9,444 bases of DNA. It comes from a virus (Duplodnaviria; Heunggongvirae; Uroviricota; Caudoviricetes). Location of the stretch: positions 1 through 9,444 of the IMG/VR virus record IMGVR_UViG_2648501797_000003; one strand, written 5' to 3'. The notes beneath the pieces were generated by a model, which saw only the letters and a program-made list of their open reading frames with translations, was not told the DNA's origin and ran no database searches. Shown piece by piece: positions 1 through 9,444 of this stretch (the stretch's first letter is position 1; every line of letters begins with the position of its first letter). The translations under genes were made by a program, and so were the position numbers.

Positions 1-783
1 CTAAATCATCGCAATGCCGTAATGCTGCCTGATGCGAAATGGTCGCCGGAAACTTAAAACAGAAGCGGAAGTCATCTGTGGTCTGCTCACGCCAGCGCAG
101 GACAACCTCGGGTTCTCAACCGCGCCGATAACCTGTTTCTCTTCTGCGCTTAACGCCACCCAGAATTCCTGATACTTAACAGTTCCAAGGCGTGCGGCAG
201 ACTCGCCTTTTGCGATCAGTTCCGGGCGGCGATCATCCGATTCATGCCCTACATGAACCTCTGTCGCACTCCCTTCAATGACACGTTCGGCTTCGTCCTG
301 ATCGAAGATGCCAGCAAACCCAAATGCGAGACGCGCACACTGGATCAGCGTCTTGTGACGAAGCATACGGGTAGGGTGGGACTGCCATGGCTGAGTGTTG
401 CGTTTGCACTCTCCCATGTACTCAGTAACGATGGTCGGGTGTGTGCGGTCTTTCCGGTATATCTTGCAGGTACACGCGCCTTCTTCCTTGTCGTAGGCAA
501 ACTCCATTCCATCAAACTGAGGATGTTCGTTGATGATTCGAGCCCAGCCGTCAACGCCGACTACAGGAACAATTCCACCTTTATCCGGGAATGCATAAAT
601 CTCTTTTGTCCACGGGTTCAGTCCGTACTGGTTGGCGACGATCAGCAGTGCCGTGAACTGCTCATCAGTGACATTCCCACCCTTAAATGCTGTATTTTTC
701 AGAGTGTTCATCAGGTCAGTTCCGGCATCCATGCCGAGGCGGGAGGCAAGCTTCCCGGCCATTGTAGAAAGTGCTGTGCTCAT
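1..783 (-). CDS. bet: Bet / Red-beta family single-strand annealing recombinase (260 aa)
   Basis: Translation from ATG at 783-781 (MSTALSTMAGKLASRLGMD...LLIVANQYGLNPWTKEIYAFPDK...VPVVGVDGW..RIINE..QFDGM...CTC.IYRKDR.HP...TE.M.EC.....PWQSHP.RMLRHK..IQCARLAFGFAGI.D.DEAER) is near-collinear with lambda Bet as I recall it. SD GAGGGG lies 6 nt upstream of this ATG. Stop TAG is at 3-1. The ORF-track start at 834 adds 17 residues with no homology and overlaps the upstream gene. Confidence 0.9.
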   Translation of the reverse strand: MSTALSTMAGKLASRLGMDAGTDLMNTLKNTAFKGGNVTDEQFTALLIVANQYGLNPWTKEIYAFPDKGGIVPVVGVDGWARIINEHPQFDGMEFAYDKEEGACTCKIYRKDRTHPTIVTEYMGECKRNTQPWQSHPTRMLRHKTLIQCARLAFGFAGIFDQDEAERVIEGSATEVHVGHESDDRRPELIAKGESAARLGTVKYQEFWVALSAEEKQVIGAVENPRLSCAGVSRPQMTSASVLSFRRPFRIRQHYGIAMI

Positions 784-799
784 AGAATTCCCCTCAAAG

Positions 800-1084
800 T
801 TAAAACGGGCAGCCGGTGCGGTGGTCCCAGTCATATTCCGCCTGGGCGTAAGCTACTGCCGAGATGAGATCGTTATATGCCTCGCCAGCTGCATCGCTGC
901 GGAGGCCTTCGTATGGGCTTTTGTCCATCGGCACAGAGAAGCGGAACAGGCCTGACGGCTCTTTCGGCAGGGCGTCGATAATTTCCTGCGCCCGATCGTC
1001 AATCCACTTTTGCTTCTCTTCGGTTAGCGACTGTTCAGCCCATTTCCTTTCTTCGATAGCGTCGTATGCGCGGTAGGCGTTCAT
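800..1084 (-). CDS. gam: Gam-like host-nuclease (RecBCD) inhibitor, 94 aa from ATG 1084 (GTG at 1090 also possible)
   Basis: N-terminus MNAYRAYDAIEERKWAEQ resembles lambda GamS MNAYYIQDRLEAQSWARHY; similar length (~95 aa), charged helical character, and position immediately upstream of bet as in lambda. Start sits 7 nt after the stop of the upstream gene with an SD-like GAGGUG spanning that stop. Homology is from memory. Confidence 0.6.
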   Translation of the reverse strand: MNAYRAYDAIEERKWAEQSLTEEKQKWIDDRAQEIIDALPKEPSGLFRFSVPMDKSPYEGLRSDAAGEAYNDLISAVAYAQAEYDWDHRTGCPF

Positions 1085-1091
1085 AAGCACC

Positions 1092-2063
1092 TCAGTAACT
1101 GATACCGGTATGGGGAATGCGGCCGTCTTTAACCGCTGTAAGCACCTCGATAGCCTGATCCCGAGTAAGGCTGGTATTGGCCAGAAGAGCTTTGACGATT
1201 TCAGTGCCTACAGCCTTGCGGTGCTTAACGTCGGCTTCGCGGCGAGCCTGCTCATCGGCTTTACGTTTCTCCTCAGCCAGGCGGGCCTGTTCGCGTTGCT
1301 CTGCCTCGCGGCGGATGCGATCGGCTTCTTCCTGAGCTTTGCGGCGCTCCGCTTCGATAGCGGCCTGCTTGTCAGCCTCAGCTTTCTTCTCGGCTGCAAT
1401 GCGATCTCGCTCTGCCTGCTCAGCTTGTGCTTTCAACACAGCTTCGCGATGCGCCGCTTCTTCACGTTCACGCGGTGCGCGCTGCTCAACTTCTCGGGCT
1501 GCTGCGGCGGCTGCCATTCGCTTAATTTCTTCTTCATGGGCAATGCGCTGGCGCTCAGCCTCAGCTGCTTTATCTGCCTGCTCTCGGTCGAAAGCGTCAT
1601 TCATCAGCATGGCCATTTCGTGGTCAGACTCAATCCGAGCTGCCAGCTGCCGATCGAACTCTTCATTCATGGCCAGTGCTTCGACGTGAAGGGCGTTCAT
1701 GGCTTCTTCGGCCTTAATGCGTTCCTGCTCCGCCTCCCATTCGGTCAACGGGCGACGCACTTCATCTTTCAGTGCATCGAGACGCTCACGGACAACGCGG
1801 CGGCTTTCATCAATCTGCTTTGGCAGCGCCTTCAGCTCAGCGACCAGGGCTTTACCTGCGTTGTCGATGTAGGTTTTAGAGCGCGCGACCTTGTGAGCCA
1901 TGGATGCGATAGCATCGCGGCCTTTTTTGGTGGTCACGTCCGGCACCAGACTGCGAGCCTCTTTTTCGATCGCTTCGATAAGCGGATCGAGTTGGTCGTT
2001 ATTGGTGAAAACCGCCATCGCGTTCTTTTTCTCGATGACGACTAAATCCATTATTTCGCTCAT
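1092..2063 (-). CDS. Hypothetical coiled-coil protein, 323 aa; structured N-terminal ~110 aa, then long Ala/Glu/Arg/Lys-rich low-complexity helical region
   Basis: Long ORF from ATG 2063-2061 with SD AGGGGA about 5 nt upstream; stop TGA at 1094-1092 directly abuts the gam-like start. Central region is repetitive (AEAERQRIA..., AAAAAARE..., KAQAEQAERDRIAAEKKAEADKQAAIEAERRKAQEEADRIRREAEQ). The antisense frames are open only because of this GC-rich repetitive coding. Family not recognised. Confidence 0.75.
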   Translation of the reverse strand: MSEIMDLVVIEKKNAMAVFTNNDQLDPLIEAIEKEARSLVPDVTTKKGRDAIASMAHKVARSKTYIDNAGKALVAELKALPKQIDESRRVVRERLDALKDEVRRPLTEWEAEQERIKAEEAMNALHVEALAMNEEFDRQLAARIESDHEMAMLMNDAFDREQADKAAEAERQRIAHEEEIKRMAAAAAAREVEQRAPREREEAAHREAVLKAQAEQAERDRIAAEKKAEADKQAAIEAERRKAQEEADRIRREAEQREQARLAEEKRKADEQARREADVKHRKAVGTEIVKALLANTSLTRDQAIEVLTAVKDGRIPHTGISY

Positions 2064-2312
2064 GGTTTCCCCTGAAATTTGGTTGTAAGAATCCCGGCAC
2101 CGTATTGGCTGCCTGATAGCTCAGTTAAATTCGTGCGCTGATATCCGGGTTTATATTGCCTGGGAGTCATTAATCAATCTGGCGTGGAGTGCGATTCGTG
2201 GCTAAATCCCCCGCCGAACGCAAAGCCGCGCAGGAGGTAAAGATCTGTTTGGCTGGAAGTGAGGGCGTGGTAATGTGTTTACCTATTCTTCATTTGCTTA
2301 GGTGGCGTGAAA
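2064..2312. promoter_or_regulatory. Divergent intergenic control region between the leftward recombination operon and the rightward small-ORF operon
   Basis: 249 bp non-coding between divergent gene starts (2063 minus, 2313 plus). Candidate leftward sigma70 promoter: -35 TTGATT (revcomp of 2172-2177), 16-nt spacer, -10 TATAAA (revcomp of 2150-2155). Short repeated motifs TTGSCTG (2105, 2156, 2249) and GGCGTG (2181, 2265, 2303). Promoter calls are by eye only. Confidence 0.35.
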
Positions 2313-2510
2313 ATGCTGTATACAGTGACGTTCAATGAGACAGAGCGGAAGGAAGATATTGAACTTAGCGCGGATGTCAGGGCGGGTGATTTGCTGTCAT
2401 TAACGCTCGATGGCGTGAAAGATGACTACACGGTGATGACAGTAGGCGGTCCTATCATTGGCAATACCTGTGTCCCATCAATAATCCGGGTAAAAAAAGC
2501 TCAGAAATAA
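2313..2510 (+). CDS. Hypothetical small acidic protein (65 aa from ATG 2313; ORF track starts at GTG 2307)
   Basis: ORF with SD AGGTGG (2300-2305) 7 nt upstream of ATG 2313; first gene of the rightward operon. No helix-turn-helix evident, so not obviously Cro-like. Confidence 0.5.
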   Translation: MLYTVTFNETERKEDIELSADVRAGDLLSLTLDGVKDDYTVMTVGGPIIGNTCVPSIIRVKKAQK

Positions 2511-2519
2511 TAATGTATA

Positions 2520-2546
2520 ATCCCCTCCACAGCAGAGGGGATTTTT
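2520..2546 (+). terminator. GC-rich hairpin with short U-tract (terminator-like) that sequesters the SD of the next gene
   Basis: 8-bp perfect stem ATCCCCTC / GAGGGGAT (2520-2527 with 2535-2542), 7-nt loop CACAGCA, then TTTT immediately followed by ATG 2547. The 3' arm contains the GAGGGG Shine-Dalgarno of the 2547 ORF. Confidence 0.45.
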
Positions 2547-2729
2547 ATGACAAACAAAAAAATGACACCTGCCGAAAAGCTCAAAGCTTCGCGGAAGCGG
2601 TATAAAAAAATCTGGCTTCAACTGGATATCGCTAACGCCAAGCGATTTGGCGAGAAAGAAGTGCTTTCCGTTGACACCTACAGATCGCCCTATGAAACGC
2701 GCAAGAAAAGAGGAAGGACAGCAGATTGA
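2547..2729 (+). CDS. Hypothetical small basic protein (60 aa), possibly nucleic-acid binding
   Basis: [42 protein letters not shown]...; Lys/Arg-rich; a beta-strand-then-helix pattern ([14 protein letters not shown]) is compatible with a ribbon-helix-helix fold, but this is a guess. Confidence 0.5.
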
Positions 2730-2989
2730 CAACATCATCCTGGAACATAGCAGCCAAATCGAAAGACGAGCAGGACAAAGTCAACGTTGACCTCGCCGCG
2801 TCCGGCGTCGCTTACAAAGAACGCCTGAACATGCCGGTTGTCGCCGAAGTGGTGGCCAGACAACAGCCTGAACACCTGCGGGACTACTTCATGGAGCGCG
2901 TCCGCTACTACCGCGAGCAGAGCATCCAGCTTCCCCGCGCATCCGATCCGCGCTATCTGGAAATGGCTGAGCAGAACGCCAAGAAATAG
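2726..2989 (+). CDS. Hypothetical protein (87 aa) with putative TTG start overlapping the upstream stop (TTGA)
   Basis: ORF in track; strong SD AGGAAGG (2711-2717) 8 nt upstream of TTG 2726; the first in-frame ATG (2831) has no SD. Confidence 0.45.
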
Positions 2990-3095
2990 CGATTTCCTCG
3001 CCTATGCTCATTTTGCTTTTATCCCCGGGAGGGGCGATAATTACTTAGTCAGTCTGGACAACTGACAACTTTACCCCGGCGCCAAGTGGGGACAC

Positions 3096-3563
3096 ATGGC
3101 GCAAACACTGCAATTTGAGAAAAGTTATCAAAACGTACTGATTCCCGCAGAGCCGGGAACCAGCGAATACCTGCAACTTATCCCCGTAGGGCAACTGCTT
3201 TGCGGTGAGTTCCGCAAGCCCAGGAATTACGCATTCCACAAGAAGTTCTTCAAACTTCTGACTCTCGGGTATCACTACTGGACGCCTTCCGGTGGTCTCA
3301 TTGAGCCCGCGGAGCGTACCCTCATATCCGGTTTTATCGACTTTCTCTCATCCGACCTCGATCAGCGCGCTGCACTCCAGAACGCCGCGGAGATGTATCT
3401 CTCCTCGGTCGGTATATCCCGTTCCCGCGATATGGCGCTGCTGAAACACTTCGAATCCTTCCGCGAGTGGGCAACCATTCAGGCTGGCTTTTATGACGAA
3501 TACCAGATGCCTGACGGCAGCCGTCGTCGTGTCGCAAAGTCGATCTCCTTTCTGGCTCGATGA
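3096..3563 (+). CDS. Hypothetical protein (155 aa), nin-region-like position
   Basis: ORF with ATG 3096 preceded by GTGGGGA. Sequence feels like a conserved enterobacterial prophage protein of unknown function (possibly a DUF-type family), but I cannot name it reliably. Confidence 0.6.
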   Translation: MAQTLQFEKSYQNVLIPAEPGTSEYLQLIPVGQLLCGEFRKPRNYAFHKKFFKLLTLGYHYWTPSGGLIEPAERTLISGFIDFLSSDLDQRAALQNAAEMYLSSVGISRSRDMALLKHFESFREWATIQAGFYDEYQMPDGSRRRVAKSISFLAR

Positions 3564-3650
3564 CCAGCAGGTTGACTACTACAGCGTGAAGAGAATGCCT
3601 GTCGTCAAAGGTGGGCGGCTTGAGCTAACCATTACCGAAATGGAGTCCGC

Positions 3651-3791
3651 ATGAGCCGTGACGTTATCGAACGCATCCGCGACCGCTGGCAAAAGCTTCG
3701 CCTCCTGCGTAGCCGCGGCACCGTGCTGGTCGACTACAAAATATTACGCAATTTCGTCCGTATCTATAAGCGCCTGGGAGAAGCAGCATGA
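3651..3791 (+). CDS. Hypothetical small Arg-rich protein (46 aa), below the ORF-track length cutoff
   Basis: ATG 3651 with SD GGAG (3642-3645) 5 nt upstream; translation MSRDVIERIRDRWQKLRLLRSRGTVLVDYKILRNFVRIYKRLGEAA; its stop TGA (3789-3791) overlaps ATG 3788 of the next gene (ATGA coupling). Confidence 0.35.
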   Translation: MSRDVIERIRDRWQKLRLLRSRGTVLVDYKILRNFVRIYKRLGEAA

Positions 3792-4477
3792 CAGCTCAAT
3801 ACTTGGAATTTGTTCGCCAGCAGCTGATAGTGGCCACCGCCGATCTGAGTGGTGCGACGAAAGGGCAACTGGTAGCTCTTGCAGAGAACGCGCAATTTAC
3901 CGCTACGGCGCGCAGCCGTGGCCGGAAGAAGGTGTATAGCGAGGTGAAGCAAAAAATGGTTAACCCGGATGGACCGCCGATGAGCGGCAGCCAGTCCCGC
4001 GCTAAGGGTTCCTCAATCGCTCTCGTTCTGCCCGTTGAATACTCGACAGCCAGCTGGCGTCGCGCCCTCCTGTCGCTGGAAGACCACCAGAAATCCTGGT
4101 TGCTGTGGAACTACAGCGACAATATCCGCTGGGAGCACCAGGAGACGATAACCCGCTGGGCATGGGAGCAATTCAGCGACAAGCTGGCCGGTGTGCGCAT
4201 TGCAAAGAAAACAGTCGATCGCCTCCGTCAACTTATCTGGCTGGCCGCACAGGACGTCAAAGCCGAGCTGGCAGGACGGGAGACGTATGAATACCAGTCG
4301 CTGGCGGAGCTGGTTGGTGTAGCAAAGTCCACATGGACAGAAACCTACCTCCCTCATTGGCTGGCGCTGCGCAGCAGTTTTGTGAAGCTTGATAGCGACG
4401 CTCTCATGGCGGTAACGCGATCACGTTCACAACAAAAGGCGTCAAATTTAGATGTAAGTCTTGCAAAACCGAACTGA
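3788..4477 (+). CDS. Hypothetical protein (229 aa); candidate late-gene regulator (Q-like by position only)
   Basis: ORF with SD GGGAG 7 nt upstream. It is the last early gene, immediately upstream of a promoter-terminator-tRNA arrangement like lambdoid Q-pR'-tR'. It has no cysteines, so it is not a lambda-Q-type zinc-finger protein. The functional call is inference. Confidence 0.55.
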   Translation: MTAQYLEFVRQQLIVATADLSGATKGQLVALAENAQFTATARSRGRKKVYSEVKQKMVNPDGPPMSGSQSRAKGSSIALVLPVEYSTASWRRALLSLEDHQKSWLLWNYSDNIRWEHQETITRWAWEQFSDKLAGVRIAKKTVDRLRQLIWLAAQDVKAELAGRETYEYQSLAELVGVAKSTWTETYLPHWLALRSSFVKLDSDALMAVTRSRSQQKASNLDVSLAKPN

Positions 4478-4489
4478 AAGGCATATATT
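4461..4489 (+). promoter_or_regulatory. Candidate sigma70 promoter (pR'-like late promoter)
   Basis: -35 TTGCAA (4461-4466), 17-nt spacer, -10 TATATT (4484-4489), overlapping the stop codon of the 229-aa gene; predicted start near 4496, about 50 nt upstream of the terminator hairpin. Confidence 0.35.
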
Positions 4490-4544
4490 TCATGTAAATC
4501 TGATATCGTCGCCATAGCTTCGATTGTCGACACATAAAGAATTC

Positions 4545-4578
4545 AAGCCCGAGGTTAACGCCTTGGGCTTTTTCATTT
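4545..4578 (+). terminator. Intrinsic terminator (tR'-like)
   Basis: 10-bp stem AAGCCCGAGG / CCTTGGGCTT (one G-U pair), 6-nt loop TTAACG, followed by TTTCATTT. Confidence 0.6.
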
Positions 4579-4580
4579 CA

Positions 4581-4655
4581 GGGTCAGAAGCACAGCGGTT
4601 GTGCGTTCGGCTGTTAACCGAATGGTAGAAGGTTCGAATCCTTCCTGTCCCGCCA
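4581..4655 (+). tRNA. tRNA-Asn (anticodon GUU)-like gene, 75 nt including encoded CCA
   Basis: Hand-folded cloverleaf: acceptor 4581-4587 with 4645-4651 (6 bp plus one T-T mismatch), D-stem GCAC/GTGC, anticodon stem TTCGG/CCGAA with loop CTGTTAA (anticodon GTT at 4613-4615), 5-nt variable loop, T-stem GAAGG/CCTTC with canonical T-loop TTCGAAT, discriminator G, CCA. Non-canonical A at position 8. Confidence 0.6.
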
Positions 4656-4661
4656 AATAAT

Positions 4662-4732
4662 GGCCTGACCTGATGACGGGCTCATAATCCAATCCATCAG
4701 GGGCGCTGCTGCAACAGCGTCACAGGCCGCCA
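4662..4732 (+). other. Degenerate tRNA-like remnant (possible decayed tRNA with CAU-type anticodon loop motif)
   Basis: GGCCTGA (4662-4668) pairs with ACAGGCC (4722-4728) and is followed by G-CCA. Inside are a 7-bp hairpin (4669-4675 with 4695-4701) whose loop contains CTCATAA, and a 5-bp hairpin CGCTG/CAGCG (4704-4719). No D-arm and no canonical T-loop. Confidence 0.25.
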
Positions 4733-4789
4733 GACCAAGCCTGGGTATTTTCGGTCATCACCGACATTGCTATTACCCTCATGCTTATT

Positions 4790-4818
4790 GCCTGCCTAAC
4801 CGCAGGCTTTTTTATTTT
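4790..4818 (+). terminator. Intrinsic terminator
   Basis: 6-bp stem GCCTGC / GCAGGC, 6-nt loop, followed by TTTTTTATTTT. Confidence 0.6.
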
Positions 4819-4920
4819 CAGGGTCGCGGGAATCACCCTCGACGCTTTGTTGGTAAATCAGCCCGACGGCCCTGACCTTCTCACACACAGCTTCCCGATC
4901 TTTCATCGGAGGCGGTAACT

Positions 4921-5340
4921 ATGGCTAAGCGTATGCAAGACAAAGAGAGCATTGCCGGGATGTCCTGGCTGGTTCTGCTGATCATTGCTGGTTGGGGCGG
5001 CCTTGTCCGATTCCTGATGGATGTAAAGCAGGGCAAAGCAAAATGGAGCTGGATAAATGCTTTTGCGCAGATTGTGGTTTCGGCTTTTACCGGGGTTATT
5101 GGTGGGCTCATCAGCATTGAAGGTGGCCTGAGTATTTACATGATACTGGCCACTGCCGGTGACCAGGTTAACAGCGAGCTATGGTGGGCGATTCAGAACG
5201 GTTATATGACGGTTAAAGCCGCAGGGGTTCGTGTCCGTGAAATAGAGACCGTCAGTGATGGTTATCAGTTTTTTGGCTTCGATATCGAAAATGACTATAT
5301 CGCTGGCTTCGACCGCGGGTCATGGGGAGAGAGATTTTAA
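4921..5340 (+). CDS. Holin-like small membrane protein (139 aa) with dual-start motif
   Basis: SD GGAGG (4908-4912) 8 nt upstream of ATG 4921. N-terminus M-A-K-R-M (Met1 and Met5 separated by Lys-Arg); hydrophobic helices around residues 11-33 and 43-79; charged C-terminal region. First gene after the late promoter/tRNA region, where lambdoid holins sit. Confidence 0.6.
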   Translation: MAKRMQDKESIAGMSWLVLLIIAGWGGLVRFLMDVKQGKAKWSWINAFAQIVVSAFTGVIGGLISIEGGLSIYMILATAGDQVNSELWWAIQNGYMTVKAAGVRVREIETVSDGYQFFGFDIENDYIAGFDRGSWGERF

Positions 5341-6221
5341 TGGCGACTAACGATTTTAAACCCTTCGCTACTGGTAGCGGGGCAAACGTATTATCACAAG
5401 CTGATTATGACGCACTGTCGGCCAGAACAACTGGCTTTTTAAGTGGCAAAGCGTCTTCGGCCCAGGTCAACAAAGCTTTAAGGCAGGCATCAACTATTGC
5501 GGCGGTTGTGGCGCAGTTTATTTCTGATAACAGCGGCGATGACACCCTTGATAACGGTAATTTACCTACCTTACTGGCTAGTCTCGAAAGCGCCCTCCTC
5601 AAGTCCTCCCCTGGGCGGTTACAGAATATCGTTAGCTTTACCGCAAATGGGACCTACACCCCATCGCCAGGAACCAAACATGTAAAAGTTATTGTTACTG
5701 GCGGTGGTGGCGGTGGTGGTGGTTGTCAGGGAACTTCAGGATCTGAATCAGTTTCAGGTGGCGGCGGCGGTGCTGGTGGTACGGCCATTGGTTATTTTGC
5801 TGTAACTGAATCCAGCTATGCAGTCACTGTAGGTGCTGGTGGTTCTGCTGGCGTTGGTGCTGTCCAGGGTGGAACAGGCGGAACCTCAATCATTAACGGC
5901 ATTAGCGGATTGGGCGGAGATGGTGGTCAGAAATCAGGGATCACTACGCTGGCTGGTGGGAAAGGCGGTATTTCTATTGGTGGCTCGGTTAACCTTCCCG
6001 GAGGTTACGGCACTGATGGGCAAAATGGCTCCCTGATTATCCCCGGCAATGGCGGCTCGTCATATTGGGGCGGCGGTGGTCGTGGGGGCGCACGCGGGGG
6101 CGTGGCAGGGGATTGTTATGGTGCCGGTGGTGGTGGCGCATATGATGCTGCCATGTCTGGCAACTCCTACAATGGCGGACAGGGGAAAGCAGGGATTGTA
6201 TATATTGAGGAATATTCTTAA
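5340..6221 (+). CDS. Glycine-rich protein (293 aa from ATG 5340), tail-fibre/adhesin-like
   Basis: ATG 5340 overlaps the upstream stop (TAATG) with GGGGAGAGAG upstream; the ORF-track start at 5322 lies inside the upstream gene. N-terminal ~110 aa ordinary composition (MATNDFKPFATGSGANVLSQADYDAL...), then polyglycine tracts (G8, G5, GGxGG) separated by short variable segments. Family not identified. Confidence 0.7.
   Translation: MATNDFKPFATGSGANVLSQADYDALSARTTGFLSGKASSAQVNKALRQASTIAAVVAQFISDNSGDDTLDNGNLPTLLASLESALLKSSPGRLQNIVSFTANGTYTPSPGTKHVKVIVTGGGGGGGGCQGTSGSESVSGGGGGAGGTAIGYFAVTESSYAVTVGAGGSAGVGAVQGGTGGTSIINGISGLGGDGGQKSGITTLAGGKGGISIGGSVNLPGGYGTDGQNGSLIIPGNGGSSYWGGGGRGGARGGVAGDCYGAGGGGAYDAAMSGNSYNGGQGKAGIVYIEEYS
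5700..5723 (+). repeat. In-frame trinucleotide simple-sequence repeat (GGY)8 encoding Gly8
   Basis: GGC GGT GGT GGC GGT GGT GGT GGT read directly from the sequence, within the Gly-rich CDS. Confidence 0.8.
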
Positions 6222-6391
6222 TGGTAAGCAAGTATGCAGTCCTGAAAGAATGCGTGGTAGAAAACATTATTGTTGCTGATGATAATTACTCTCCTGATGA
6301 TTTCGAAGTCGTAAAATATAGCGACGAAACATTTTGCCAGCCAGGCATGTTGTACAATAAAGAGGATGGTTTATTTTATGATGATAAATAA
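6221..6391 (+). CDS. Hypothetical small protein (56 aa), translationally coupled to the Gly-rich gene
   Basis: ATG 6221 overlaps stop TAA 6219-6221 (TAATG); translation MVSKYAVLKECVVENIIVADDNYSPDDFEVVKYSDETFCQPGMLYNKEDGLFYDDK. Below the ORF-track cutoff. Could be a short chaperone or a fragment of a tail-fibre assembly protein; unproven. Confidence 0.35.
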   Translation: MVSKYAVLKECVVENIIVADDNYSPDDFEVVKYSDETFCQPGMLYNKEDGLFYDDK

Positions 6392-6438
6392 TCATCAAGA
6401 ATAAATAACATTATCTACATATCTACACATTACCAATC

Positions 6439-6463
6439 AACCGGCTTATGCCGGTTTTTTATT
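6439..6463 (+). terminator. Strong intrinsic terminator directly abutting the start of the 694-aa gene
   Basis: 7-bp stem AACCGGC / GCCGGTT, 4-nt loop TTAT, followed by TTTTTTATT; ATG of the next gene at 6473. Confidence 0.7.
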
Positions 6464-6472
6464 GGGGCGACC

Positions 6473-8557
6473 ATGAGTGAATACGATACCGGCAATCCTG
6501 TGCCGTCTGCATCAATACCTGATGCATGGGATAATATGCAGTCTATTGACAGGTTCGCTAATAGTAGTGATGAAACTATTACCACGCGTACAGGTAAGCA
6601 GTTAGACACTCTGCATGGCATCAATGTAAAGTCTGATAACCAACTTAATGAACAACAAGATACCTTTGAATTATCTCAATCCGAAAGGGAATCCTCTTTC
6701 GAAGAAAAATCAAATGAATTTGAATCGCGCTTCTCCTCTCAGTTATCGGCGCAGGAATCAACATTTTCAGAATCTCAATCTGATAAAGAAAACCGCTTTC
6801 AGCAGTTCCTGAATACTTCAGGATACGTGTTCCTTGGCGATTATCAGGACGGCCCATTCCAGTTTAGTGCCCGTAACCAGTACATCCGTTACGGCAATGA
6901 GTATTACCGCCTGAATGCTGCTACTGACGTCGGCTTTACGACCACCGGAACCGATGCGACCAGCTTTGCGAACGACGTTACTCACTTCGTTCTGATGGAT
7001 GGTGATACGCTTCGCCAAGACCTGGGTTCAGGCGAAGGAGCAATGAAGGTTTACCGGAACGCCTCACCTCTGGCCAGAATCATTCGCTCCTCGATTTTTG
7101 AATACCTTACTGAAGCTGATCAGCAGGCGTTGCTCACAATTCCTGGCGTTAATGTTATCGCTGACTACGCGTTAAAAAAAGCTATAGCTGATGGAGTGAT
7201 GGTACTGGATATTCCGTGGAATGTCGGTGCGTTAAATTTCGGGCTTGACCCCGCAATGCTTCCATTAGGTTTTCAATTTATAGGGTGGGGTTGCCGACGC
7301 CCATATACAATTGATGACGATAACAGTTTTCTGAATTGCGGAGTCGTCATCCGCGTAGCTGCTGGTGCAAGTTTTCCATTTTATTCAACAGGCAGGCATG
7401 TATTCCGGGATATTGTTTTTGATGGCCGAGATAAAACAACGTACCTTTTTTATTCGCCAAATACTGCAACCCAGTTCAACGGCACCCGACTTGAGGGGTG
7501 TGGATTTTATCGGTTTGCGATCGGGATTGGCTGGGCTTCAGGAGGAACAGCCAGGTACATCGGAACAATGAAAGCATATTTCTGCTCAATATCCGGAAAC
7601 GGGGATGGAGTCAGGAATTTAATAGACTCCATGATGTTTGGTTGCACAATCAATGCTAATGATCGAGGAGTGGCCCTTACCGGTGGGGCAAACAATAACT
7701 TTTTTGGAGGATGCCGGAACGAATGGAACACCGGCGATAACTGGTATGCGTACCAGTCGGTGGAGAACCAGATTTTCGGCGAACTGTGCGACAGGGCCGG
7801 AAGGGGAGGTGTGGTCGCCGGGGCGAAATCCTCATGGATTTTAAACGGCGTTAACGTCCGGCGCAGTGGTGCTAATCAACCCGTGGGTAATGACTATTCC
7901 GCAAACTTTATTATTATTGATGACGGTAAAATTGAACTCTCAGGGGTAAGAACTGGTGTCGGTGCGAATGACAGCGGTGACGGAGGGACAATCTCGCCAT
8001 CCTACAACGTATCAGCTCTTGGCTCTGGCGGGGGGACCTTGCAGGTTTCCGGAAGTGACATGACTGGTTTTGTTACTTCAGCAATTAACCAGAAGGCGAC
8101 CACGTTAAATAAGTCGATAACCGGCAACCTTGGTATGGACGACGATGTAAATATTGGTATGACCCAGGTTGTTAAAGGCAGGCGAATTATTGGTTCACAG
8201 TCATCAGGTACGTTAGCAGGCTCTGCGGGCGCAACGTTATCGCTGACCAAGACCAACATATTCCAGAATTATTTCGATACATATATTACCCGTTCAATCC
8301 TAATTGAATGTCGAATTGGTAGCCAGTCATTTGGTGACGATATTAAAATTCCCGTCAGATTCAGAAGGGAGAATCTTTATTATCTGGATATCCTGACCTC
8401 GGGAATTGTTGCCAGCTCTGCACGCATTGGGCTTTCAGGGACTGGCGTAACGGTATCATTGTCCATTAACAGCTCAACCGGTCTGGTTACTGTTCAGTTG
8501 ACAAATGTTGATGGTCTGGAAAGAACCGTTAATGTATCAATGTTGCCCTCAATGTAG
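6473..8557 (+). CDS. Tail-fibre / tailspike-like protein (694 aa); probable receptor-binding protein with beta-helix-like body
   Basis: Long ORF. N-terminal acidic Ser/Glu/Phe repeats with roughly 11-residue spacing of Phe (TFELSQSERESSFEEKSNEFESRFSSQLSAQESTFSESQSDKENRF), typical of fibre coiled-coils; central and C-terminal Gly/Asn/Ser/Thr-rich stretches resembling beta-helix tailspike proteins. No specific family confirmed. Confidence 0.7.
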   Translation: MSEYDTGNPVPSASIPDAWDNMQSIDRFANSSDETITTRTGKQLDTLHGINVKSDNQLNEQQDTFELSQSERESSFEEKSNEFESRFSSQLSAQESTFSESQSDKENRFQQFLNTSGYVFLGDYQDGPFQFSARNQYIRYGNEYYRLNAATDVGFTTTGTDATSFANDVTHFVLMDGDTLRQDLGSGEGAMKVYRNASPLARIIRSSIFEYLTEADQQALLTIPGVNVIADYALKKAIADGVMVLDIPWNVGALNFGLDPAMLPLGFQFIGWGCRRPYTIDDDNSFLNCGVVIRVAAGASFPFYSTGRHVFRDIVFDGRDKTTYLFYSPNTATQFNGTRLEGCGFYRFAIGIGWASGGTARYIGTMKAYFCSISGNGDGVRNLIDSMMFGCTINANDRGVALTGGANNNFFGGCRNEWNTGDNWYAYQSVENQIFGELCDRAGRGGVVAGAKSSWILNGVNVRRSGANQPVGNDYSANFIIIDDGKIELSGVRTGVGANDSGDGGTISPSYNVSALGSGGGTLQVSGSDMTGFVTSAINQKATTLNKSITGNLGMDDDVNIGMTQVVKGRRIIGSQSSGTLAGSAGATLSLTKTNIFQNYFDTYITRSILIECRIGSQSFGDDIKIPVRFRRENLYYLDILTSGIVASSARIGLSGTGVTVSLSINSSTGLVTVQLTNVDGLERTVNVSMLPSM

Positions 8558-8565
8558 GAGTGAAA

Positions 8566-8745
8566 ATGGAAGACGAAACAGAACTGACCGAACCGCCATT
8601 TGAAACCTGGTTCAGAGACGTGGTTGAACTGGTTAAAAATGGCGGACATTCAATGGATATTGTTGCCTATAAGGGGGAATGGGTTGATTATTTTTCGGAA
8701 GGATTAACACCAGAAGATGCGTTTATAAAAAGAATGGCTCTTTAA
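8566..8745 (+). CDS. Hypothetical small acidic protein (59 aa from ATG 8566)
   Basis: SD AGGAG (8556-8560) overlaps the stop of the 694-aa gene, 5 nt upstream of ATG 8566; very acidic (MEDETELTEPPFETWFRDVVELV...). Confidence 0.5.
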   Translation: MEDETELTEPPFETWFRDVVELVKNGGHSMDIVAYKGEWVDYFSEGLTPEDAFIKRMAL

Positions 8746-8858
8746 ATAACCGACCGAAAATAAATGTCAGGGAGTAACGTATTGATAATTTTCGACAAAA
8801 CGGCAGAGCATAGTGAAAACCGCCTGTGGATGATGGCCAACATGGGGAGGATTCTGTA

Positions 8859-9176
8859 ATGGGCTTTCCATCACCCGCGACGGATTACACGGAACAGCGA
8901 TTAACGGTTAACTCGATCTGCAATGTCGGTCCAAATACGCGCCTCTTCGAGCAATCTGGCGGTTACGTTGTGCTGGATGTCTCCCTGAAACCAAAGCAGG
9001 CCAGTCAGGTTCTGATCCAGCACGGCGGCGGGACGGAGCTTGCCACGCTGAGAGGAAGGTCGCTGATTACCGAAGATGGTGAAGCGATCGAGGGCGAGGC
9101 CCTGGACGATGTTACTGTCATCGGTGTAGTGACGTTTACTATCTGCGATGTGCGCCAGGACAATGCGGTTGTTTAG
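8859..9176 (+). CDS. UmuD'-like protein lacking the N-terminal pro-peptide (HumD-like; 105 aa)
   Basis: SD GGAGG (8846-8850) 8 nt upstream of ATG 8859. N-terminus MGFPSPATDYTEQRLTVNSIC matches the UmuD segment GFPSPAADYVEQRIDLNQLL that begins at the Cys24-Gly25 self-cleavage site (13 of 20 identical by my recall). C-terminal TVIGVVTFTI resembles UmuD DVFGVVIHVV. No GDSM serine motif seen and no umuC-like ORF downstream. Confidence 0.65.
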   Translation: MGFPSPATDYTEQRLTVNSICNVGPNTRLFEQSGGYVVLDVSLKPKQASQVLIQHGGGTELATLRGRSLITEDGEAIEGEALDDVTVIGVVTFTICDVRQDNAVV

Positions 9177-9339
9177 TTGCAGTCAATTGATGGAAGATTT
9201 CGCGTGGCAGGCGTCTTGGGGCATGGGTGGGGCATGAGAAATCAGTGAATTTCGCCAAACATTGCAAACAACGTATGTTGGATGCTATCTCCAGCCATTA
9301 AAAATGGCGCTCCTGGACGATATTTGTCGATTTTTAAAT

Positions 9340-9444
9340 TTACCGCGTCACGCAGTTAAAGTGGCGGGCATACTCTTCAAGGCTGGTGATCCCCAACCGC
9401 ACCCATTTAGGATGCGACCATTGCGGTAGACCGATGTAAATCAT
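9340..9444 (-). pseudogene. 5' fragment (34 codons plus stop) of a DUF72 / YecE-like host gene, apparently interrupted
   Basis: Minus-strand translation from ATG at 9444-9442: MIYIGLPQWSHPKWVRLGITSLEEYARHFNCV then TR-stop. This matches my recollection of the E. coli YecE (DUF72) N-terminus, which should continue EGNTT...; divergence begins near 9348. Identification from memory. Confidence 0.45.

Follow-up and report, generated by a model that had tools for sequence, protein, structure and literature searches.

In phage lambda, the experimentally demonstrated intrinsic terminator tR2 is located between ren and ninB and is read through by N-modified RNA polymerase. Between these two genes the lambda genome shows a hairpin followed by TTTTTATTT, 24 nt before the ATG of ninB; the lambda record does not carry the label, and we take this hairpin to be tR2. 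For the E. coli phage HK639 it is said, following King and colleagues in 2011, that put-type RNA antitermination is used. The phage morons described by Hendrix and colleagues are extra genes that are equipped with their own promoter and terminator. The hot gene of phage P1 has its own promoter as well, LPhot, which is located 22 nt upstream. At the isrK locus of the prophage Gifsy-1, the RNA formed by read-through of a terminator is translationally inactive (PMC4825925).

Here, we compare with these systems a short element that is present in a window of 9,444 nucleotides, i.e., the whole stretch of DNA that was analyzed (IMG/VR record IMGVR_UViG_2648501797_000003, positions 1 to 9,444). It is a hairpin between two small plus-strand genes, and it differs from tR2 in that it is compacted, with the Shine-Dalgarno sequence of the next gene in its 3′ arm and a -10 box at its 5′ foot. 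We predict that this hairpin is a Rho-independent terminator of the early-right (pR) operon and corresponds to lambda tR2 in position and function, to which we assign a probability of roughly 0.55. An intrinsic terminator under antitermination had been mentioned in passing in a preliminary description of the locus, and it is the reading for which the evidence weighs more. A literature search found no paper on the element. We regard it as ordinary, because it is a conserved lambdoid cassette that is found here in a decayed E. coli prophage.

Genomic context of the hairpin

Over all 9,444 bases, the window matches four complete E. coli chromosomes with 100% identity, and in these the segment is placed between yecE/yecN/cmoA and yecD. 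The minus strand encodes bet, gamL and a gene of 323 aa, and the plus strand carries in this order ORF67, the hairpin, ORF60, a P1 Hot-like gene for a DNA polymerase III theta homologue (theta in the following), ninB/DUF1367, ylcG and Q. Further along the window follow genes for a tRNA-Asn, for a holin that is truncated and fused to a fragment of DUF2612, for tail fibers and for an S24 peptidase. The two halves of the window that abut at about 2154-2202 are separated by about 8.2 kb in the close relative L052, and the DNA lost at this joint encodes in L052 cI-like, cro/cII-like and O-like proteins and their neighbors. A second deletion joint is found near position 5160. The window is thus a cryptic lambdoid prophage of Klebsiella type that has decayed and in which pR, pL and the immunity genes are missing. 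As the upstream early operon with the immunity and replication region is deleted, antitermination has no substrate here, and the element in this E. coli window is a relic of which the operon context is gone.

The features around the hairpin are collected in Table 1. The protein encoded by ORF60 is conserved in HK639 and in Klebsiella phages. The theta-like gene starts with a TTG that overlaps the stop codon of ORF60, TGA (2727-2729). The ORF67-type upstream context is found in few relatives only (L042, L052, L079, and L085), and in most relatives the cassette to which the hairpin belongs is located directly before the theta gene. RNA started at the putative promoter at the 3′ end of ORF67, which is a consensus match only, would hold the whole hairpin.

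Table 1. Coordinates of the hairpin, its sequence elements and the neighboring genes in the window.
Feature	Position	Strand	Remarks
ORF67 (phrog_38858), upstream gene	2307..2510	+	stop TAA 2508-2510, 8 nt before the stem
Best sigma-70-like match, TTGGCA-16-AATAAT	2458..2485	+	10/12 consensus matches; in the 3′ end of ORF67
TATAAT, perfect -10-like hexamer	2516..2521	+	6/6 match; last three bases (AAT) form the stem base
Hairpin 5′ arm, AATCCCCTC	2519..2527	+	inverted repeat 100% complementary; in the MFE structure
Loop CACAGCA, 7 nt	2528..2534	+	in the MFE structure; predicted start zone of a TATAAT transcript, ~2528-2531
Hairpin 3′ arm, GAGGGGATT	2535..2543	+	holds the Shine-Dalgarno sequence GAGG(GG), 2535-2540
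T5 run	2542..2546	+	putative terminator U tract; at the same time spacer between Shine-Dalgarno sequence and ATG
ORF60, small basic protein (phrog_16632; RefSeq WP_025269966.1)	2547..2729	+	program-listed ORF
DNA polymerase III theta / P1 Hot-like gene	2726..2989	+	PF06440, E = 3e-35; 76% identity to P1 Hot

Structure of the hairpin

The sequence at 2510-2549 is ataatgTATAATCCCCTCcacagcaGAGGGGATTTTTATG. It had been described as an 8-bp GC-rich hairpin that carries the GAGGGG Shine-Dalgarno sequence in its 3′ arm, that is overlapped in its 5′ arm by a TATAAT hexamer and that is followed by a short U-tract and an ATG, and this anatomy is confirmed throughout. An inverted repeat of 8-9 bp is found, with a perfect 9-bp stem that includes 6 G-C pairs and encloses a loop of 7 nt; the Shine-Dalgarno bases are located wholly inside the 3′ arm, and the ATG of ORF60 directly follows T5, at a distance of 8 nt from the Shine-Dalgarno sequence as counted from GAGG. 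The folding energy, which had been proposed as a check, is likewise in favor of the structure: the minimum free energy (MFE) structure of the RNA from 2500 to 2560 is the hairpin alone with -13.8 kcal/mol, and dinucleotide shuffles (n = 200) gave a mean of -6.5 ± 2.1 (z = -3.46), with 0/200 folding as well. In the predicted fold of a transcript from 2470 to 2600, the Shine-Dalgarno bases have a probability of being unpaired of 0.00. The TATAAT hexamer occurs once in the window with 3.4 copies expected, and at least one copy was present in 192 of 200 shuffles. The hexamer alone is within chance, and it is notable through its conservation in relatives.

A consensus terminator scan of the window passed over the hairpin, since two bases of T5 pair with AA at the stem base and are absorbed into the 9-bp stem, which leaves four T's in the 8-base tail window. 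In Rfam, no family was found over the element at the gathering threshold, and a sub-threshold match on the opposite strand is spurious.

Conservation of the cassette

The hairpin belongs to a cassette of the form TATAAT-CCCCTC-N7/8-GAGGGG-T run-ATG that was found in 63 distinct variants at more than 110 loci of phages and prophages in Klebsiella, Escherichia, Raoultella, Kluyvera and Citrobacter. It is always located where the nin region begins, before ORF60 and/or the theta gene, and before other genes in L044 and L069. Three known Klebsiella phages share TATAATCCCCTC-N7-GAGGGGATTTTT(T)ATG with the window, with unrelated upstream sequences, and in one of them theta itself, not ORF60, is located downstream of the cassette. 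Scanning IMG/VR with the stem pattern CCCCTC-N7-GAGGGGATTTT yielded 110 matches, 68 of which are the cassette, with TA[TC]AAT before the stem and the ATG of ORF60 or theta within about 11 nt. Copies were also retrieved independently of the hairpin by a genome search with the theta protein combined with a scan for the theta N-terminus, which led to diverged copies in Raoultella, Kluyvera, Citrobacter and phage HK639. At least eight different upstream contexts of the cassette are found, and homology stops a few bases upstream of TATAAT.

The 63 distinct variants were aligned with MAFFT. Within the hexamer, A8, A10, A11, and T12 are conserved to 100% and T7 and T9 to at least 90%. TACAAT is the only alternative hexamer where the downstream gene is intact. 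The degenerate hexamers CTATTA, AATAAT and TATTAT are found only where theta has a premature stop codon or no ATG, and they are absent from the roughly 44 cassettes in which the gene is intact, a count that comprises few lineages and for which ascertainment was partly via the hairpin itself. The GAGG core is invariant and located within the 3′ arm in 63/63 variants of this leader, to which we refer as type I. The loop is free in sequence and has a length of 7 or 8 nt, both about equally common. TATAAT and the GAGG core are better conserved than the T run: in 50 of the 63 variants the stem is followed by four or more T's in a row, and in 13 the run is interrupted (TTCTT, TTCATC, TATTT, and others).

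Pairing is kept in 98.1% of the pair cells of the alignment. MAFFT misaligns the register of the rows with insertions, and some of the "unpaired" cells are therefore alignment artifacts. Two-sided compensatory substitutions were found in none of the 63 variants. Thirteen changes are one-sided; all result in U.G pairs on the plus strand, with nine cells at one pair alone, and the same changes are A.C mismatches on the minus strand and in the DNA palindrome. In the lineage of L116, L197, and L232, an extra T in the 5′ arm is accompanied by an extra G in the 3′ arm, adding one pair, and in another lineage a U.G pair was converted to U-A. As two-sided covariation is absent, the support for an RNA structure consists of the folding energy, the wobble-only changes and the one paired insertion. 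The stem is mostly frozen and sequence conservation dominates, because the 3′ arm must stay a Shine-Dalgarno sequence and the foot overlaps the -10 box.

A probable intrinsic terminator at the entrance to the nin region

In its anatomy the hairpin resembles a canonical intrinsic terminator: the G+C-rich 9-bp stem, which includes 6 G-C pairs, and the loop of 7 nt are within the usual ranges (stems of about 5-14 bp, loops of 3-8 nt), and U5 follows. In the record of HK639 (NC_016158), the same element (gtgatcTATAATCCCCTCAAATAACCGAGGGGGTTTTATG) is annotated as "terminator" at 41560-41586, CCCCTCAAATAACCGAGGGGGTTTTAT, a label that is probably a sequence-based prediction. Compared with this record, the hairpin of the window is an unannotated copy of an element that is already labeled as terminator. 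The genomic position is consistent with this assignment. In all intact relatives (L001-L003, HK639, and L052), among them complete lambdoid phages of Klebsiella and E. coli, the element follows the replication and accessory genes and precedes theta, NinB and the genes up to Q, and in L052 cI-like, cII-like and O-like genes are located upstream of it. At the same place a sister leader (type II) that is not homologous carries a textbook terminator, AAGGCCC-ttag-GGGCCTT followed by TTATTC, before theta and a different ORF60-like gene (MKPKKLNAEQQYKLD...). Its Shine-Dalgarno sequence is located about 35 nt past the terminator and is untouched by the stem; therefore, termination and not burial of the ribosome-binding site would be common to both leaders. 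The cassette moreover persists before other genes in L044 and L069, in L044 with a Shine-Dalgarno sequence AGGAG outside the hairpin.

Scored with a d'Aubenton-Carafa-type formula, which gives rough values only, the hairpin ranks as a borderline terminator, with +7.8 for the best parse of the window hairpin and values down to -25 for other parses, and variants with TTCTT or TTCATC tails scored -10 to -28. The broken T run in 13/63 variants, with a conservation below that of TATAAT and GAGG, the omission of the hairpin by the terminator scan and the absence of two-sided compensatory substitutions speak against a terminator, and in the window no upstream operon is left that could be terminated. 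The T-run pattern would fit a cassette of promoter and ribosome-binding site at least as well. An N-like antiterminator was recognized in none of 10 L052 proteins scanned, and Rfam antiterminator RNAs had no match in L042, L052, and L085.

As a tR2-type terminator, the element would act as follows. In intact relatives, transcripts coming from the replication genes would fold the stem, and the U5 directly after it would cause release of RNA polymerase around 2544-2548 in the numbering of the window. Polymerase that carries the processive antitermination modification of the phage would escape this release, and the release step would limit or delay expression of the nin genes and of Q. The cassette is compacted against the next gene so that the 3′ arm doubles as Shine-Dalgarno sequence, and the ribosome-binding site would therefore be buried in the read-through RNA. 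In the window, a ribosome ending at the stop codon of ORF67, 8 nt 5′ of the stem, could reopen the stem. The invariant TATAAT, with which the stem begins to pair, may add a weak internal promoter without a -35 element, the transcripts of which would lack the 5′ arm. The preliminary description had related the hairpin to antitermination. The HK639 annotation, the tR2-like position and the terminator of the sister leader argue for this relation; in the window itself it does not apply, the upstream early operon being deleted.

Alternative explanations

The cassette could combine a promoter and a ribosome-binding site, with TATAAT as the -10 element of an internal, moron-like promoter for ORF60 and theta (Hot), an explanation that we consider rather unlikely. 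RNA started in the loop at about 2528-2531 would then have a free Shine-Dalgarno sequence, read-through RNA would be locked, and the T run would mainly be a spacer. Such a choice between promoters is compatible with termination. For promoter activity at TATAAT as such, the chances are somewhat below even. It is suggested by the invariance of TATAAT/TACAAT across the 63 variants and at least eight unrelated flanks, by the better conservation of the -10 and Shine-Dalgarno core compared with the T run, and by the confinement of degenerate hexamers to cassettes with damaged theta. The theta/hot copies of Proteus carry TGcTATACT or TGcTATAAT, and homology again begins just upstream of this box; P1 hot has its dedicated promoter LPhot. 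Several flanks show nnGAnA 16-17 bp upstream of the hexamer, e.g., CAGACA-17-TATAAT in L002, and some reach 4/6 matches. This excess of -35-like sequences is unconvincing, because the contexts are partly homologous to one another.

Other observations speak against a promoter. In the window the -35 region is AAAAAA (2/6 matches), and the commonest flank has a poor -35 region as well, CGCACC. The TG is located at -14/-13 instead of -15/-14 (aaTGTATAAT), so that a canonical extended -10 element is absent, and a consensus promoter scan did not call a promoter at TATAAT. The stem in any case constrains the last three bases of the hexamer, AAT. A/T-rich flanks of terminators often mimic -10 boxes, and a TATGAT is also found in the U tail of the type II leader. 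A constitutive promoter would furthermore read into Q, as the window shows no plus-strand terminator from theta to ninB; in L052, a terminator-like hairpin follows theta plus one extra ORF.

It had been proposed that a transcript started at this TATAAT begins inside the stem and leaves the Shine-Dalgarno sequence free. In predicted folds of truncated RNAs starting at 2527-2531, the 5′ arm is absent and most of the Shine-Dalgarno bases are freed, and the start is to be placed in the loop. The further proposal that translation is coupled to promoter choice gains from the invariant TATAAT but loses from the missing -35 element and the blank promoter scan. Both functions might be united in a portable terminator-embedded promoter, an idea that we regard as speculative. 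The hairpin would stop polymerases coming from upstream, antiterminated RNA would have a locked ribosome-binding site, and RNA started at TATAAT would escape both termination and burial of the ribosome-binding site. If this is true, about 45 bp would insulate the accessory genes theta (Hot) or ORF60 from the early program and provide an autonomous output that is possibly expressed in the lysogen, as a unit that is swapped among many lambdoid phages and set before different genes.

A purely translational hairpin, in which ORF60 and theta are silent unless an upstream ribosome or a trans factor opens the stem and in which termination plays no part, is improbable. In its favor, the Shine-Dalgarno sequence is fully paired in the predicted fold and belongs to the 3′ arm in every type I variant, the folding energy of -13.8 kcal/mol would amply suffice for repression, and the stop codon of ORF67 is close to the stem in the window. 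However, this distance between upstream stop codon and stem is not conserved, as it is 8 nt in the window, about 18 nt in L003, about 48 nt in L001 and about 120 nt in L002, and this variation rules out translational coupling as the conserved purpose. The U5-6 that directly follows the stem in most variants is left unexplained by a translational model, and neither L044, with its real Shine-Dalgarno sequence outside the stem, nor the type II terminator, which spares the Shine-Dalgarno sequence, fits this explanation.

A DNA operator, ATCCCCTC-N7-GAGGGGAT, that lies over the -10 box and start site and is bound by a dimeric phage regulator is very improbable. The arms are both conserved in sequence with no two-sided covariation, and the repeat overlaps the -10-like box; in Pectobacterium L128, a repeat CACCCTC-N6-GAGGGTG is located just upstream of TATACT. 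On the other hand, the spacing of the half-sites is not fixed (loops of 7 or 8 nt), one lineage has gained one base per arm, A-to-G or C-to-T variants break the palindrome and keep U.G pairs on the plus strand, and no candidate regulator was found. The wobble changes, the paired insertion and the loop dimorphism argue for pairing of a plus-strand RNA over binding of a protein to an operator, and the operator model was rejected on the grounds of the loop dimorphism, the extra-base lineage and the palindrome-breaking changes.

That a functionless chance hairpin lies next to a chance TATAAT has a negligible probability: one copy of TATAAT in 9.4 kb is expected by chance, but 0/200 shuffles are as stable and the cassette recurs at more than 110 loci with variable loops and flanks, data by which a chance origin is refuted.

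Implications

As a tR2-type terminator, the hairpin would represent textbook lambdoid regulation, here in a dead prophage. The 45-bp leader, which consists of -10 box, hairpin, ribosome-binding site, T run and ATG, is found in more than 100 enterobacterial phages and prophages, so that a consistent annotation is possible, and the cassette marks the boundary of a recombination module where the nin region begins. The strict conservation of TATAAT and GAGG compared with the U tract constitutes a testable case of a possible overlap of terminator and promoter, and this overlap may control a phage-borne homologue of the DNA polymerase III theta subunit.

Comparison with known systems

At the isrK locus of Gifsy-1, the read-through RNA of a prophage carries, as here, a downstream ORF with a hairpin-locked ribosome-binding site (PMC4825925). 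There, the inactive fold involves a long-range pairing and is opened in trans by a short sRNA isoform (PMC4825925). The sequences of cassette and isrK locus are unrelated, and for the cassette there is no evidence of an sRNA or of alternative folds.

As in morons, an accessory gene, theta/hot, moves as a unit together with a short leader that bears a -10 box; P1 hot, too, is served by a promoter of its own, and L052 has a terminator-like hairpin after theta and one ORF. In contrast to morons, the terminator-like hairpin of the cassette precedes the gene instead of following it and overlaps the -10 box, and the promoter is putative, without a -35 element in the window. LPhot is of another type, as it is an Lpa-dependent late promoter.

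The likeness to lambda tR2 is one of position and architecture. Both are located after the replication and accessory genes, before the first nin gene and upstream of Q, and both show a G+C-rich stem, followed in lambda by UUUUUAU..., near the ribosome-binding site of the next gene. Sequence similarity between tR2 and the cassette is absent. In lambda, the Shine-Dalgarno sequence of ninB follows the U tract and is not part of the stem, and there is no TATAAT at the stem base. Termination is demonstrated for tR2 and predicted for the hairpin of the cassette.

HK639 carries the same element in the form TATAAT-CCCCTC-N8-GAGGGGG-TTTT-ATG, with a homologue of ORF60 and then theta downstream; its record annotates neither ORF60 nor TATAAT. 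The HK639 copy differs from that of the window by one U.G wobble pair, a loop of 8 nt and a run of four T's in place of five. As HK639 is an intact phage, its element is still located in a live early operon, whereas the copy in the window is that of a prophage remnant.

Deletion joints and other features of the remnant

The remnant is defined by two deletion joints, at about 2137-2202 and at about 5160 of the window. At the first, approximately 8.2 kb are gone in comparison with the close relative L052, including the cI-like, cII-like and O-like genes and their neighbours. At the second, a truncated holin (4921-) is fused to a DUF2612/baseplate fragment and to tail-fibre genes of a different, Wanchaivirus-like phage type (94% identity).

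Features accompanying the hairpin cassette and the remnant
Feature	Position	Strand	Remark
Conserved motif CTAAATCCCCCGC(C/A)GAACGCAAAGCCGCGCAGG	2202-2237	+	apparently non-coding
Sigma-70 match TTGGCA-16-AATAAT	2458-2485	+	top consensus match in the window (10/12)
Alternative pairing	2532-2549 / 2555-2572	+	imperfect, 72% complementary
isrJ match	4493-4571	+	directly 3' of the Q antiterminator gene
Terminator-like hairpin ending the isrJ match	4545-4570	+	strongest such hairpin in the window
tRNA gene	4581-4652	+	tRNA-Asn in the RefSeq annotation
S24 (UmuD/LexA-like) peptidase ORF	8826-9176	+	right end of the remnant, adjoining yecD

Surroundings of the hairpin cassette

In most relatives a gap of only ~24 nt separates the conserved motif from the TATAAT-hairpin cassette downstream of it; the window carries the ORF67 segment as an insertion at this place. 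The motif itself contains no obvious hairpin in the window. The sigma-70 match is located within the 3' end of ORF67; purely speculatively, an RNA running from this match to the hairpin would be ~55 nt long and resemble an sRNA, with terminator and U tail.

Within the cassette RNA, the 3' arm, the T run and the AUG can alternatively pair with the A-rich codons 3-9 of ORF60, the small basic protein gene downstream. This pairing appears in folds of 5'-truncated RNA and is not kept in those relatives whose cassette directly precedes theta, the DNA polymerase III theta/Hot-like gene.

A second, non-homologous leader type is found ahead of a different small basic ORF and theta at L241, L174, L159, L121 and other loci. 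It begins some 45-65 nt before the start codon (ATG) of this ORF60-like gene (MKPKKLNAEQQYKLD...) and comprises a terminator (AAGGCCC-ttag-GGGCCTT) followed by TTATTC, TAT(G/T)AT, GAGAG and ATG. The theta genes of Proteus prophages (loci L129-L144, 3001 +/- 60) share a module starting at ...CACCCTGCTATACTCTCCAAAAA, an extended -10 element (TGnTATACT), with unrelated DNA upstream of it; second copies carry TGCTATAAT. In the Pectobacterium locus L128, a 9-bp inverted repeat, GTCACCCTC-N6-GAGGGTGAC, is placed 7 nt upstream of TATACT.

An isrJ match downstream of Q

The match to Rfam isrJ, an Hfq-binding sRNA, scores 57 bits (gathering score, 37). The putative RNA has the look of a short leader transcribed from the Q-dependent late promoter; the tRNA-Asn gene sits between this apparent leader and the truncated holin. 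We propose lambda 6S RNA/tR' as its counterpart, and this resemblance suggests that Salmonella IsrJ is likewise a transcript of the Q-dependent late-promoter leader type.
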